From assembly GCA_964016885.1 (NCBI GenBank), contig OZ024749.1, positions 30,504,001 through 30,568,000 of the forward strand: DNA of 64,000 bases, in the 5' to 3' direction. Source of the stretch: Eledone cirrhosa. Taxonomy: Eukaryota. How positions within the stretch are numbered: the stretch's first letter is position 1; every line of letters starts with the position of its first letter. Below are positions 3,569-60,614 of this stretch, piece after piece. Below the pieces are notes generated by a model. The model saw nothing but the letters and a program-made list of their open reading frames with translations, made no database searches and was not told where the DNA came from. The position numbers and the translations under genes are program-made.

Positions 3569-3612
3569 ATCGTACTGATGAGAACCAGTTCAGTTCGAGA
3601 TGAATCAACGAT
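3569..3612 (+). ncRNA. Degenerate hammerhead
   Basis: atcgta CTGATGA gaac-cagttca-gttc GAGA tgaa TC aacgat; stems I and II pair, GAAA mutated to GAGA. Confidence 0.55.
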
Positions 3613-3864
3613 TGTCCCCCTTGCTTCTGCTGCACACCGCTGGGTGGTGTTAGCTGACAGTGTTTTTGCATAGCTACAGCTTTTTAAATGTTTATTTATA
3701 AACATACCATATTTATTTAGAAGTACGGAATTCAAATACATACACACGCACACACACACATATATATATATATATATATATATATTATATATATATATAT
3801 ATATATATATATATATATGACAGAGTTTTTTGTAGCTTGCATGAAATATTGTTTAATAGGAAAC

Positions 3865-4098
3865 ATAAATTTAAATTTTGAAGACCAACACAATGCCTAT
3901 GGAGAATGTTAAATTGCCAAGATAACTAAAGAATAGTACCATAGCAAATTTAACGATTCCAAATATTTTCGGGTTTAAAAGGTACTTTTAAACACGAACA
4001 TATTTGGGATCGTTAAATTTGCTAAGGTACTATTCATTAGTAATCTTGGCAATTTAACATCCTCCATACGCATTGTGTTGGTCTTCAAAATTTAAATT
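3865..4098. repeat. Imperfect long palindrome between (TA)n tracts
   Basis: Arms aaatttaaattttgaagaccaacac... / ...gtgttggtcttcaaaatttaaattt, centre near 3980. Confidence 0.85.
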
Positions 4099-4267
4099 TC
4101 TATTTCATATATATATATGTCATAATAAGTTAATATAATAGTGTATCAACAAAATATATACTCATGTCAGAATTATAACACATAATCAGTTTCGAATCAG
4201 AGCTCAGGAAATCGGAAGAAATACCAAGGCTTTTAATCCGAGCCCCAAATAAACCCTTCAGAATAAG

Positions 4268-4960
4268 ACAATGATTTCTGATTTAGGCACAAAGCCTACA
4301 TTTTTGGGGAGCATGAGGGTGTCGATTAAATAGACGCTAACGCGTTACTGTCACATTGTTTTACCGACCCCGTAAGCATGAAAAGCAAGGTTGAATAACA
4401 ATTGTTTCTAATTTATGCCAGCAATTTGAAGGGAGGGGGGGGAGTCAAATAAATCGACCCAGTACATTACTGGTGCTTTATTTAAGGATAAAAGGCAAAG
4501 CTAACCTCGGCGGGATTCGAACTCAGATCATAAAGGGCCGTAACTCTATGCTGCAAAGCAGGGTATTCGGCGCTCTACCGAAACTGCCAATCCAACACCC
4601 TAAGGTTGAATAATAATAATAATGTTTTACGATTTAGGCAGTTTTTGGAGAGAATGAGAAATTCAATTAAATCGACCACCGTACGTTACTGGTACTTTAT
4701 TTTATCGACCTCGTAATGATGAAAGACAAGGTTGAACAATAATAATGGTTTTTTGATTTAGGAACAAGACCAACAATTTTGAGGGAGGAAGAAAGTCTAC
4801 TATCTTTACCCAAGTGTGTTACTGGTATTCTATTTTATCGACTCGGTAAGGATGACAGTCAACCTTAATCTCAGTCAATTTTGAACCCCAGAACATAAAC
4901 AACCTTGACTATTTGTCGTAAAGCATGTTCTCCGACGCTCTACCGATTACAGCAAATGCG
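4268..4960 (-). mobile_element. Cluster of degenerate SINEs (similar at 22259-22830, 35752-35890, 36327-36572, 40813-41250, 41700-41830, 63771-63900)
   Basis: Repeated ttactggtactttattttatcgacc...gatgaaag motifs. Confidence 0.75.
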
Positions 4961-5388
4961 TCACCTCGCTTCAGAATGAAATAATCCAACACATATGATT
5001 TACTCAGCATAACATGTTATAACAATGGCAAATTACGGTATTACAAATAAGATAATACTGTTTCCAAAGCATTTCGTTTATATTTATCTCTCACACACAA
5101 ATATATACACACACAGACAGACACTCAAACGGACTTATACACACACACGGACATACACACACATATACATGGACAGACACACAAATATATATATATATAT
5201 ACGTATATATATATATATATACACCCACACAGATATATACACACACATATACACGGACATACACACACACACATGGACATACACACAAATAGACGCACAC
5301 AAACACACACAGATACACACATATTCATACACATATACTTACACACACACACATACATAAATACATACACAAACAAACTGTATATATT

Positions 5389-5569
5389 AATTGTTTCTAC
5401 TTTAGGCACAAGGCCAGCAATTATCCAGTGCATTACTGGTACTTTATTTTATCGACCCCGTAAGGATGAAAGGCAAAGTCAACCTCGGCGGGATTTGAAC
5501 TCAGATCGTAAAGGGACGTAACTATGCTGGAAAGCATGGCGTCCGACCTTCTACCGATACTGCCAATCA
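5389..5569 (-). mobile_element. Same SINE family
   Basis: Reverse complement of 61711-61897. Confidence 0.88.
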
Positions 5570-6222
5570 GAAACTTGAAAGTACATAACACAGAACTATC
5601 CATGTTTATTTTTTTATAGAATCAATATAGATGTATTTTGATTTATTATATTTTACACATTGTTTACGAAAGAAAATAATATACAAAATGACATCATTTA
5701 TTTTTTTTTTGGGGGGGGGGGGGCTAAAATAACATCAAAATCTAATTCTTCAGTGGTATTTGTGTTTGTCATTTGTTGCGAGATTGAATTGTTTCACAGA
5801 CAGAAATATTGACAAAGAAGATTAGTCGCCTTGTCTCTCCTACAACTAAATTGAGAATTCAAGTGAAAAACATAAAATTCCATAAATCTAATGATGCTTA
5901 CAATATCTTTGAAAACTCGCAAGCTTTTTTAATATTTATTTATATATCTATTTATTTATTTATTTATTTATTTACTTATATATTCATCCAATTTCTGTAA
6001 GACATAAACGAATTCGAATGTACTTATCAACTTAAAAATACAATTTGTTTTTTTTTTAGAAACTATTTTAAGAAAACTATGGTGAATAGGTAAAGTTCGT
6101 TTCGGATCTTTGCGCTCTGAGATCAAAACCCTACTAGTTCAAGTTTGTCTTTGATCCTTTAAATATCGATTATTATAATAGCAGTCAGTTACTAATTACT
6201 AATACTCAACATTACCAGACTT

Positions 6223-6375
6223 AGACCAATTATATCAAATGTCAAGTCAAGAGTACTCAAACTATATGGCCATATAAAAAGATCAACTCGTGGTGTGAGG
6301 AGGTTATGCCTGGAAGGAAGATTGGCTGGTAAGAGAAGAAGAGGCCGGCAGCCAAAACGATGGCTTGATAATGTC
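6223..6375 (+). pseudogene. RTE-like LINE 3' fragment
   Basis: + frame reads VKSRVLKLYGHIKR...LEGRLAGKRRRGRQPKRWLDN. Confidence 0.65.
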
Positions 6376-58732: not shown

Positions 58733-59029
58733 CTTTCTGTCAAAATAATATAAATAACAAAACGACATATTTACGAACTTGTATGCATCCTTCTTCGAAC
58801 TTTTAAAATGCTGCTGTATTTGGAGCTGGAGAGGAGTAGGGCTCTGCCAAGCAAAAAATGTCCAAGAAATGCCGTCTGTCAATACGGGGACGCTACGATT
58901 TATATCAGGAGGTACGGGACCATGCATGCATTTATGTATGTATGTATGTTTTCTCTTTCTCTTAATTTCGAGTATATTTTTTTTTGACCGGCCACCTTCC
59001 TGGTGGCAAGGTTGTAAAAGAAAAGAAAT

Positions 59030-59440
59030 TGTCATCCCTTGAATTGCAAGAAAGTTTTGCAAATTTTGAAGGTGCCAGCTATCGCAGCCATTTGTAGACT
59101 ATGAATTAGGAAGCTGCGCTTTTTGTCCGCAAATCCAAGTTCAGTCATACTTTGGTCCAAACGGGTTGGTATATAACTCGTAGCTCCAATAATGATGGGT
59201 ATGAAGCTAAAGGTGTATCTTGGATACTGGATTTGTAAACTCTCCATCAATGGTCCGTAGATGTCCTCCTTCTCCTGTATTTTTCTGACAACTTTTACAT
59301 CAGGTGGGGGGGCTGATCTCCACAACAGAACACGTTTTCAATGTGTGGTCCCAAACAACAATATCAGACCGGTTGTGCTTTAATTTGGTGGCAGTTTGTA
59401 TTTTCAGGTTCCACCAGTATTCCTTAGTGCCATCTGTCTC
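59030..59440 (-). pseudogene. RLE endonuclease fragment of an R4/Dong-like non-LTR retrotransposon
   Basis: YWWNLKIQT...HNRSDIVVWD...SVVEISPP, a frameshift, then KEDIYGPL...FIPIIIGATSYIP...LQMAAIAGTFKICKTFL; the 5' junction is a (TACA)n tract. Confidence 0.75.
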
Positions 59441-59550
59441 ATATGTATGTACGTATGTATGTATGTATGTATGTATGTATGTATGTATGTATGTATGTAT
59501 GTATGTATGTATGCATGTATGCATGTATGTATGTATGTATGTATGTATGT

Positions 59551-60089
59551 GGATGGCCATTGACTCTTAAGAGCTCCTTTGCCCTTTGACCGGTTTTGTT
59601 TTTAGTCCTGCAGGATGTCCAAAGTCACGCTCCTCACCAAGAAACCTTGGTGGGGTTGCCAGTTTAGTCCAAAATCACCGGGAGTGATGACCCCTTAGCC
59701 TTTGTCAAGGCAGAATTCTAGGAGAAGGAAAACTGATATAACACCTGCAACCCTGATGGTATCCAATGATGTTGACTTGTTCTTCTTTTTGGTAAATATC
59801 ATCTTGGTTAAGAGAGTGGGACTGGCTTTGTGCAGTGCCTTTGCTCACTATAAAAGCTTCACGGCACAGGCATTGCTTTATATCTGGAGATCTCTCTGCA
59901 CTTGTCGTCATATGGTACCGTGGGCCCAGCAATATGTCTCAATAATTGTCACAAGTGTAGTGTTTGTACCAGAGTTTTCAAGTCGCTGGGTGGACTAAAA
60001 AGTCACACTCGTTCAGCGCTTCGGTAGGGGTTCTCCTACATGGATATAAAGTAGTGGCCGTACTCGAAAACGAGTTGGCAGCCACCATG
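59551..60089. mobile_element. Same family as 11616-12230, internally inverted
   Basis: 59551-59669 matches ~12037-12155 directly; 59670-60089 is the reverse complement of ~11616-12036. Confidence 0.8.
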
Positions 60090-60149
60090 TATGTATGTAT
60101 GTATGTATGTATGTACATATGTATGTATATATATATGTATGTATGTATC

Positions 60150-60352
60150 GATAGTCGATCGACTTTCGTCAGATCAAACCGTGGAAAGAATGTTTCCGTT
60201 GCTAATACTATCTATCGGTCACAACTCCAGGTAGAAGGAGCGATGTGAAATAAAGTGTCTTGCTCAAGGACCTAACGCATCGTGCGGTCCAGGATTCGAA
60301 CTCACAAATTCACGATTGCGAATCCAATTCTCATACCACTCAGCCACGCGCC
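60150..60352 (-). mobile_element. Second tRNA-derived SINE with a CORE-like domain (also ~19230-19455, ~36160-36303)
   Basis: Minus strand: gcgcgtggctgagtggt (A box), gagttcgaatcc (B box), tccttgagcaagacacttt (CORE-like). Confidence 0.72.
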
Positions 60353-60547
60353 TTCTTGCATATATATATATATATATATATATATATATATATATATATA
60401 TATATATATATATATGTGTATATATATATATATATATATGTGTATATATATATATATATATATGTGTATATATATATATATATATATATATATATATATA
60501 TATATATAATATATAAGAACAAAAGATGGTTAAATAAGTTCCATGTA

Positions 60548-60614
60548 TTTTATTATGCTCATTTCAAAAACAAAAATCATCATGCAATAACATTTGTGTT
60601 TTCATCAGATAAAA
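60548..60614 (-). ncRNA. Hammerhead, same family as 14747 (stem III substitution)
   Basis: Minus strand: ttttat CTGATGA aaacacaaat... GAAA tgagca TA ataaaa. Confidence 0.78.

Follow-up and report, generated by a model that had tools for sequence, protein, structure and literature searches.

Hammerhead ribozymes are carried by several groups of Penelope-like elements (PLEs) and by the retrozymes of animals, the closest described counterparts of the sequences analyzed here (throughout, statements on published work draw on parts of the cited sources). Minimal hammerheads of PLEs, with U3-A8 covariants and a palindromic helix III for dimer cleavage, form many families per genome and occur as solitary motifs from truncated elements or as pairs on opposite strands, separated by 100-700 bp (Cervera and de la Pena 2014, PMC4209133). 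PLEs of the Hydra clade combine a C-terminal GIY-YIG endonuclease and the RW[KR], DKT, CxCX5C, CxxC and CxH motifs with a 3' hammerhead and (TA)n targets, and include one family from Octopus bimaculoides, Hydra-1_Obim (Craig et al. 2021, PMC8557442); according to the same source, Neptune-type PLEs have a CX2-5CxxC linker, a CCHH endonuclease, a 3' hammerhead and TA targets. In the Poseidon PLE of Anolis, reverse transcription starts at two internal sites bounding a tail downstream of the hammerhead, and both strands of an AT-rich target are cut (Frangieh et al. 2024, PMC11167929). Metazoan retrozymes are dispersed tandem units of low GC content that lack open reading frames (ORFs), carry one type I hammerhead each and are found beside PLEs proposed as their mobilizers (Cervera and de la Pena 2020, PMC7229834; Li, Clavereau and Pollet 2026, bioRxiv 10.64898/2026.07.22.740005). 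Sequences of these kinds occur in a 64,000-nucleotide stretch of the cephalopod Eledone cirrhosa, here called the window (positions 30,504,001 to 30,568,000 of contig OZ024749.1, assembly GCA_964016885.1). The islands between its (TA)n tracts are, with high probability, first-copied 3' ends of PLEs together with ORF-less tandem units that borrow their enzyme, by the mechanism proposed below.

The first-pass annotation of the window reported about 20 hammerheads from about 12 unrelated families. Its positions (18, one of them fourfold) correspond to 21 motifs, which inverted pairs and tandem units collapse to about 14 insertions in 12 sequence families; the number of families holds, but they are not fully unrelated, three of them having the tail word GAGTGCT in common. 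Under a strict type I descriptor (CUGANGA, helix II of at least 3 bp, GAAA, UH, and helix I of at least 4 bp), 14 of the 21 motifs pass, and 15 pass a relaxed form that tolerates one mismatch per helix (cores at 8449, 12820, 14618, 30583, 42588, 43057, 43526, 43995, 44593, 45064 and 60608 on the minus strand and at 8537, 14753, 25673 and 48217 on the plus strand). The remaining six are decayed: 13611, 34087 and 50174 belong to families whose other members pass; 33387 and 24592 have relatives elsewhere, none demonstrated to pass; and 3575 has a single 80% relative, without the core (relatives of these last three, families F6, F4 and F13, were sought within the sampled and retrieved loci). One intact motif, at 35143 on the plus strand, had been missed.

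Across the window, the descriptor finds 15 strict and 16 relaxed motifs, whereas 100 dinucleotide shuffles, done island by island with the microsatellites kept in place, average 0.02 and 0.19 (never more than 1); the reversed sequence gives none. The 16 relaxed motifs, 15 of them from the first-pass annotation, have the C3-A9 and G12-A15 cores, U16-H17 and paired helices I and II. Because CUGANGA alone is only about twice as frequent as in shuffles (38 against 19.6), the signal resides in pairing; a palindromic helix III, which the descriptor does not demand, accompanies 14 of the 15 strict motifs. By sequence and pairing, then, the window motifs are real type I hammerheads. An Rfam scan returned two hammerheads among the 150 matches listed of 294 (HH9, 33.2 bits; gathering score 52); the listing consists mostly of microRNA models on microsatellites and is uninformative for hammerheads.

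The search was extended to a genome sample of 40 stretches of 10 kb (400 kb, at round coordinates on 21 contigs, picked before viewing). Four of 40 relaxed matches, without a palindrome or stem III, were discarded, leaving 36 motifs in 16 of the 40 stretches (24 had none; bootstrap range 0.048-0.14 per kb), against 0-4 for ten decoy cores and none in the reversed sequence; a second descriptor, with U3-A8 cores and a bulge added, gave 40 motifs (0.053-0.16 per kb) against 0-3 for nine decoys and one reversed. Helix III is palindromic in 33 of the 40 relaxed matches and a true stem in four more. It is very improbable that AT-rich, hairpin-rich repeats produced these motifs by chance and that copy number then multiplied them. 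Shuffling does destroy repeat structure, the 21 motifs are only about 14 insertions, and no Rfam match listed reaches the gathering score; however, 36-40 real motifs per 400 kb face 0-1 in reversed sequence and 0-4 with decoy cores, the palindromes were unrequested, and in the coding families the motif occupies the position in the pseudo-long terminal repeat (pLTR) known for PLEs. These controls refute the chance reading, except possibly for 3575.

The sample density is one intact motif per 10-11 kb; the figure of one per 3 kb originally proposed thus holds locally but not genome-wide, the window being about 2.5 times as rich as the mean. Scaled to the 3.0-Gb assembly, this gives roughly 1.4-4.7 x 10^5 motifs, and about 2 x 10^5 insertions (27 in the sample). 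A 2010 survey reportedly found tens of thousands of motifs of one canonical family in Schistosoma mansoni, at a similar density per kb. The total estimated here lies far above the published counts of about 2,000 and 1,300 in Schistosoma, 4,000 in the coelacanth and 9,000 in Xenopus (PMC4209133); further counts are more than 6,000 in Acropora, about 5,000 in Mytilus and up to 120,000 in the axolotl (PMC7229834), descriptors differing in both cases, so that the comparison is rough. A full-text literature search, with most subscription journals outside its coverage, found no report of such a hammerhead density and none of a cephalopod retrozyme; cephalopods are unmentioned in the parts of PMC7229834 drawn upon and unsampled in those of bioRxiv 10.64898/2026.07.22.740005. 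The sampled motifs form 21 sequence clusters, 16 of them seen once (a few singletons may be false), from which Chao2 estimates 44-52 families. All DNA examined holds 301 motifs in 43 sequence clusters, a set that counts overlapping loci repeatedly and is biased to the families searched for; the 43 clusters retain the core, helix I and the helix III palindrome peculiar to each family, U3-A8 covariants included. One family has a true 3-bp helix III with an 8-nt loop in place of the palindrome (L029:7762-7860, L030:5759 and L055:3387, L-numbers denoting loci retrieved from the genome for comparison) and can likely fold as a monomer; L029 holds two copies 53 bp apart.

The elements belong to known kinds, as additional Hydra and Neptune-type PLEs and as additional non-LTR retrozymes. 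Four of the 13 window families (F1, F2, F3 and F11) are 5'-truncated 3' ends of autonomous PLEs, five (F5, F7, F8, F9 and F10) are ORF-less tandem units, and four (F4, F6, F12 and F13) are assigned to neither class, so that the initial description of almost all of them as non-coding is not supported. The Hydra-like PLEs said to lie alongside are real (minus-strand ORF remnants 46153-47399 and 56054-57686). Clade calls were made by protein motifs. A genome search with PLE1, the family of the 56054-57686 frame, gave 90 matches, more than 50 of them near full length, with 95-99% protein identity and mostly without stops, and nine copies are 98.7-99.5% identical in DNA; the sequences thus support the presence and recent amplification of Hydra-clade PLEs. 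In L002, PLE1 has an 873-codon open frame with YRDD and YIGST, in which the reverse transcriptase (RT) precedes a C-terminal GIY-YIG domain; RT and endonuclease pieces also follow each other in order in L100, L101 and L165. The RW and DK motifs read RWR and DKT in PLE1, RWI and DKT in F3, RWR and DKS in F11, and DKT in F1, where RW was not found in the pieces examined. CxCX5C and CxxC occur in all four families and CxH in PLE1, F1 and F11; by inspection, PLE1 has one cysteine only before the GIY-YIG tyrosines, and no CCHH. All four carry a hammerhead in the pLTR and insert into (TA)n; the 3' junction of PLE1 is visible in only one of four copies, because most loci continue into the ORF, and the window copy has lost the CUGAUGA half of its hammerhead, near 53700, by deletion. 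Pfam recognizes no family in three window frames nor in the full Hydra frame, and among 114 homologues of PLE1, most of them unnamed, the named ones come from Argonauta hians and Actinostola sp.

The short hammerhead islands are tied to these ORFs by longer copies. An endonuclease match ends 2.2-2.4 kb upstream of F1 on the same strand in three of eight long loci (L093, L094 and L100), and a second hammerhead lies 440 bp after the ORF. The four window motifs of F3 (14618, 14753, 30583 and 60608), from three insertions, mark the pLTR of a coding element that is arranged as pLTR-ORF-pLTR with a 3.58-kb period in L101; in this family the endonuclease match ends 0.88-1.07 kb upstream in six of 12 long loci. 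F11 lies 1.08 kb downstream of an endonuclease match in two of 11 short loci and is likewise arranged as pLTR-ORF-pLTR in L165. The second Hydra ORF (46153-47399) was considered as the parent of the F10, F11 or F12 hammerhead, and the link was not borne out. Compared with the published Hydra clade (PMC8557442), this genome holds five families or more, where one is listed for Octopus; its units are 3.6-5.1 kb in length and have long 3' untranslated regions (UTRs), against "generally <3 kb"; and near-identical open frames are numerous. The tail hairpin (see below) is not in the published description as far as drawn upon. The 3' UTR of the F1 element (L093:1128-3717; L100:3344-6397) also contains a second, diverged hammerhead and the apparent tail of another hammerhead family, which suggests growth of these UTRs through nested capture at TA tracts inside them.

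F2 differs from these families in its upstream RT and endonuclease, which have the CX2-5CxxC linker and CCHH (ORF pieces in nine of 12 long loci; Pfam GIY-YIG, E = 5e-7). By these motifs, F2 would be Neptune-type, a label that spans Neptune or Nematis; it shares with published Neptune-type PLEs, as does the L048 family, the linker, the CCHH endonuclease, the 3' hammerhead and the TA target. Further Neptune-type ORFs were observed at L073:3-1324, L037:8329-9636 and L048:8241-9512, two of them 97% identical in protein; the L048 one ends in a U3-A8 hammerhead.

Among the ORF-less families, F9 is a young dispersed retrozyme with a compact hammerhead in each unit. Its arrays comprise 2 to about 15 units with 99-100% identity, were found on at least 11 contigs (among 150 matches listed of 299), are TA-flanked where flanks are in view, start at any phase of the unit and are in some cases inverted. 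No PLE frame accompanies the eight F9 loci or the 14 F10 loci examined. The longest ATG frames have 64 codons in F9 and 25 in F10, with 37% and 38% GC, and these two families, in which this was measured, are thus non-coding and below the 45% GC of retrozymes. On such sequence features F9 and F10 would qualify as non-LTR retrozymes, and F5, F7 and F8, with partial tandems at two or three of seven to nine loci each (two loci besides the window for F5), more weakly. The units measure 469-718 bp, against 170-400 nt in PMC7229834 and 51-972 bp in bioRxiv 10.64898/2026.07.22.740005. The circular fold, compared with doublet shuffles, gives z = -8.8 for F9 and -2.0 for F10 and is not taken as support. 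By chance, the random sample also included two tandem hammerhead arrays, L052:456-3400 (seven units of about 482-492 bp) and L037:6638-7800 (three units of 528 bp). A 617-bp partial tandem at 15418-16243, with a tail hairpin in both units (15517 and 16134), has no hammerhead detectable by the descriptors and is possibly a ribozyme-less or other-ribozyme unit.

The arrays could in principle be satellites, single PLE end fragments having expanded where they lay through unequal crossing-over, without any trans-mobilized retrozymes, a route proposed in the discussion of bioRxiv 10.64898/2026.07.22.740005. Private variants are indeed common to adjacent units in some arrays (F10 in L072 and L075). 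We nevertheless consider this improbable: near-identical F9 arrays are spread over many contigs, start at any phase, end at two fixed stops in TA flanks and stand on both sides of inversions, and no coding parent lies beside the F9 and F10 loci.

The targets and ends of the insertions are directly observed. The association with (TA)n asserted at first pass is not significant in the window alone, where a TA tract lies no more than 250 bp away from eight of 15 motifs (45% expected, p = 0.33). It is strong in the sample, where the corresponding count is 33 of 36 motifs, against 48% when non-TA positions are drawn at random from those stretches (0 of 500 permutations; 25% for random positions over all 40 stretches). 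A TA tract is reached within one unit downstream of the cleavage site in 181 of 191 terminal copies from 15 families (overlapping loci were excluded by flank signature only). The end distances cluster at two points, at +226-231 and +296 in F9, +35-44 and +103-127 in F1, +38-45 and +131-145 in F3, and +75 and +188-199 in F10, with two points also in F12, F8, F2 and others; the points lie 45-130 nt apart. This pattern matches the tail between the two internal RT start sites of the anole Poseidon, which differs in being 30-40 nt long, in belonging to another clade and in that no such bulged hairpin is reported in the parts of PMC11167929 drawn upon. Variable 5' ends and inverted arms are typical of the copies; inversion is seen in five of the eight F9 loci inspected, and in L020, L021 and L022 both arms are visible and stop at different ends. 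Retrotransposition of the islands into (TA)n by PLE machinery is thus supported. Every insertion is continuous across the cleavage site and terminates 20-430 nt past it; therefore the template was not a cleaved linear monomer, and the ribozyme-processed RNAs envisaged as templates in the first-pass annotation can be retained only as religated circles, the alternative being an uncut multimer.

The tails of these insertions share a hairpin, situated 5-20 nt past the nearer end, with a stem of 4 bp, two bulged nucleotides (TT, TA or TC) on the 3' side, an upper stem of at least 3 bp and a loop of 2 to more than 100 nt. Its closing stem is ACTC/GAGT, GCTC/GAGC or GTTC/GAAC across families otherwise without detectable similarity. 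It is present in all four Hydra-linked families (PLE1, F1, F3 and F11), in F12 and family A, and in five of the seven ORF-less families (F10, F8, F7, F5 and the L037 family; F8 and F5 were examined after the pattern had been defined, and the F5 hairpin, seen at the L167 junction, has a long loop); both Neptune-linked families (F2 and the L048 family) lack it. With loop lengths too different for a cross-family MAFFT alignment, the arms were compared by descriptor. A tightened descriptor, tuned post hoc, matches 35 sites in 400 kb, with 0-3 for seven decoys and two in reversed sequence; a TA tract follows after 20-170 nt at 25 of these 35 sites, against 17% at random. As an independent check, the same hairpin is discernible by eye in three of five published Hydra consensuses of the PMC8557442 supplement: after the hammerhead in Hydra-2_Amil from a coral and Hydra-2_Ajap from a sea cucumber, and at the start of Hydra-1_Ajap; Hydra-1_Amil ends too early to be scored. 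The structure was not reported in the literature searched (Repbase, too, lay outside its coverage), and the word "hairpin" has no occurrence in PMC8557442. The tail hairpin is a candidate signal, for protein binding or priming, by which the Hydra RT would select its templates. Whether it is a recognition signal of Hydra PLEs clade-wide, in corals, sea cucumbers and this genome, through which hairpin-bearing ORF-less hammerhead circles are mobilized by the Hydra RT, we regard as evenly balanced.

In the mechanism that we propose, the Hydra protein would bind RNA at the tail hairpin and nick (TA)n, and reverse transcription would be primed at either of two internal sites flanking the hairpin, as it is in vitro for the Poseidon PLE. 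The hammerhead, just upstream of the RT start sites, would be copied first and survive 5' truncation, which, in a TA-rich genome with many active families, would account for the high density. Priming on both target strands would produce the inverted arms, and ORF-less units with the same hairpin would be mobilized in trans from multimeric or circular RNA, yielding arrays of between 2 and about 15 units. Cutting by the hammerheads would probably take place only in dimers, through the palindromic helix III, converting multimers into monomers able to circularize. What we infer, beyond the family structure, ends and targets seen in the sequence, is binding, cleavage, circles and which RT serves which retrozyme.

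Several observations weigh against this proposal. The hairpin is not at the matching place in F9, the youngest retrozyme, or in the related L052 family; among published consensuses, Hydra-1_Crog has only a variant of it, and in Hydra-1_Obim it was not seen at the 5' start (PMC8557442, as far as drawn upon). The hairpin descriptor was derived from the very families that it describes and tightened afterwards, its loose form matching 50 sites in 400 kb, with 6-24 for six decoys and 18 in reversed sequence. F5 and F11 have one clear end, not two. F5, F7 and F8 form partial tandems only, were viewed mostly with short flanks (1.5 kb), and a weak PLE match lies upstream at one F7 locus. BLAST of seven tandem units against the UTRs of five autonomous families found no nucleotide similarity, so no partner PLE is identified by homology; the only similarity in that comparison is between F9 and the L052 family. 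Unit variants, tried as a test for monomeric circles, proved mixed (A, B, B, A in the window F9 array) and indicate no single circular template. Self-cleavage, circles and transcripts are predictions. Eight of nine Xenopus retrozyme dimers were uncleaved in vitro (bioRxiv 10.64898/2026.07.22.740005), and in the Poseidon system cleavage is unneeded for insertion in vitro, where hammerhead mutants insert normally (PMC11167929). As a separate candidate, compact hammerheads with a U.U first pair were considered as a mark of Neptune partners for F9; since this form also occurs in cnidarian Hydra elements, it was abandoned as a diagnostic. U.U at 10.1-11.1 is present in the Hydra-clade table of PMC8557442 and also in PMC3088659.

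The published data on cleavage bear on a more specific alternative, that cleavage has no role in mobilization: read-through multimers would be copied uncut from the internal starts, and the ribozyme would be a passenger or act elsewhere. We consider this possible, though somewhat doubtful. It accords with insertions intact across the cleavage site, with the lack of anole RNA-seq reads ending at that site (PMC11167929), with the abundance of family A, most copies of which hold half a hammerhead, and with heterogeneous units within one array. Against it, conservation of the core, helix I and helix III palindromes over 43 clusters, U3-A8 covariants included, points to selection on catalysis at some step, and coral, mussel and axolotl contain circular retrozyme RNAs in abundance (PMC7229834). 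This alternative concerns cleavage only and is compatible with the rest of the mechanism proposed here.

Table 1. Hammerhead-bearing and related features of the Eledone cirrhosa window
Feature	Position	Strand	Details
F13	3491-3737	+	core 3575, GAGA for GAAA; candidate hammerhead only
F1 inverted pair, Hydra-clade PLE 3' ends	8293-8619		hammerheads 8397-8456 (-), 8530-8589 (+); (TA)n both sides
F1 tail hairpin	8338-8358	-	4-bp stem, 2-nt 3' bulge, 3-bp upper stem
F2 inverted Neptune-type PLE 3' end	12670-13794		hammerhead 12787-12825 (-); decayed 13611 (+)
F2 endonuclease remnant	13041-13286	-	
F3 inverted pair, pLTR ends of Hydra-clade PLE	14432-14845		hammerheads 14556-14626 (-), 14745-14815 (+)
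F3 tail hairpin	14489-14513	-	
Family A example	21675-21874		palindromic TA-flanked insertion of about 200 bp; 3' half of U3-A8 hammerhead plus tail hairpin
Family A, other copies	18500-18690, 30149-30340, 48438-48644, 49757-49958, 53387-53600, 62689-62773		outside first-pass annotation
F12 tail-only fragments	24310-24415, 51873-52025		
F4	24480-24678	+	core 24592; palindromic helix III, weak helix II; fails descriptor
F5, unit about 690 bp	25301-25983	+	hammerhead 25669-25791; helix II region 96 nt
F3 copy, 5'-truncated 3' UTR	30491-31348	-	hammerhead 30521-30591
F6	33076-33484	-	hammerhead-like core 33387; long irregular helix II; fails descriptor; short inverted arm
F7, unit about 718 bp, partial tandems	33711-34421	-	core 34087, two changes; inverted arm 34307-34421
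F8, unit about 488 bp	34833-35301	+	hammerhead 35137-35217; not in first-pass annotation
F9, 3.8 head-to-tail 469-bp units	42262-44019	-	hammerheads 42551-42595, 43020-43064, 43489-43533, 43958-44002
F10, units about 482 bp plus inverted arm	44446-45350	-	hammerheads 44516-44598, 44987-45069
F10 tail hairpins	44884-44919, 45242-45277	-, +	
Second Hydra-like family, RT remnant	46153-47399	-	frameshifted; 39-47% identical to first
F11, Hydra-clade PLE 3' end	48155-48312	+	core 48217; helix III palindrome mutated
F12, no ORF linked	49982-50310	-	core 50174, TAAA for GAAA; Hydra-type tail hairpin
PLE1, 5'-truncated copy	53621-57686	-	open RT-endonuclease frame to 56054; 2.3-kb 3' UTR
F3 copy	60516-60799		hammerhead 60546-60616 (-); inverted tail arm with hairpin 60718-60742 (+)

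The repeats of the window (Table 1) were mapped by masked BLAST, an unmasked search being dominated by TA tracts. The F12 core is intact in other copies, and the family core of F7 is a U3-A8 variant. The 400-kb sample contains 11 anchors of family A. Of 43 anchors compared, 42 lose their similarity to the single long reference copy 0-47 nt upstream of GAAA, within helix II or its loop; most copies therefore retain half of a U3-A8 hammerhead, the upstream half being present in two long copies (L111 and L053). This would be a hot spot of breakage or RT stops inside the ribozyme. Matches to the tail hairpin in TA-bounded islands with no hammerhead nearby (3345, 31418, 38669, 38850, 39351, 63264 and 63590) are candidate tail-only insertions of more families. 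Decayed hammerhead-like cores outside the first-pass list were observed at 16744 (-), 23374 (+) and 62890 (-); L077 contains a passing copy of the 62890 family, and in L035 a Hydra-like endonuclease match precedes relatives of 16744 and 23374 by about 2 kb. Outside the hammerhead set, the commonest complex repeat is a dispersed 180-190-bp family resembling short interspersed elements (SINEs), at 5379-5568 and about 20 other places (for example 12492, 17004, 19459, 24858, 49218, 58079 and 61711), sometimes in short tandems. A 420-bp repeat, bounded by (ATAC)n and not (TA)n, occurs in two inverted copies with 95% identity (11618-12038 and 59668-60086) and a diverged third near 52596-53127, and 28536-29217 is a minisatellite with 131-191-bp units, in which a short complex core lies between TG-rich tracts.

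The idea of such a hammerhead ecosystem is largely in print; what goes beyond the routine is its scale and the shared hairpin, the latter making the partnership of retrozymes and PLEs directly testable. The enzyme that moves animal retrozymes, and its recognition signal, have so far been argued from co-occurrence and pLTR homology (PMC7229834; bioRxiv 10.64898/2026.07.22.740005), whereas here the insertions themselves bear PLE signatures (TA target, two fixed ends and inversions) and a structure in common with one PLE clade. In this genome, young autonomous Hydra elements with open frames coexist with young ORF-less units that have the same insertion signature and, mostly, the common hairpin, with compensatory changes; the Neptune-linked tails provide a built-in negative control for hairpin binding or priming. 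An RT handle defined by structure and directed to TA targets would interest builders of RNA-templated insertion tools. The sample further suggests that many "unique" islands between TA tracts of this 3-Gb genome are PLE ends that would be missed by ORF-based annotation, the Hydra protein being without any Pfam match, and that hammerhead variants form a large natural library in it. If the proposed reading is true, animal retrozymes would have a structure-level pairing with their PLEs of the kind known for SINEs and long interspersed elements (LINEs), in a genome whose hammerheads would number a few hundred thousand and form dozens of families, above the published counts compared here.

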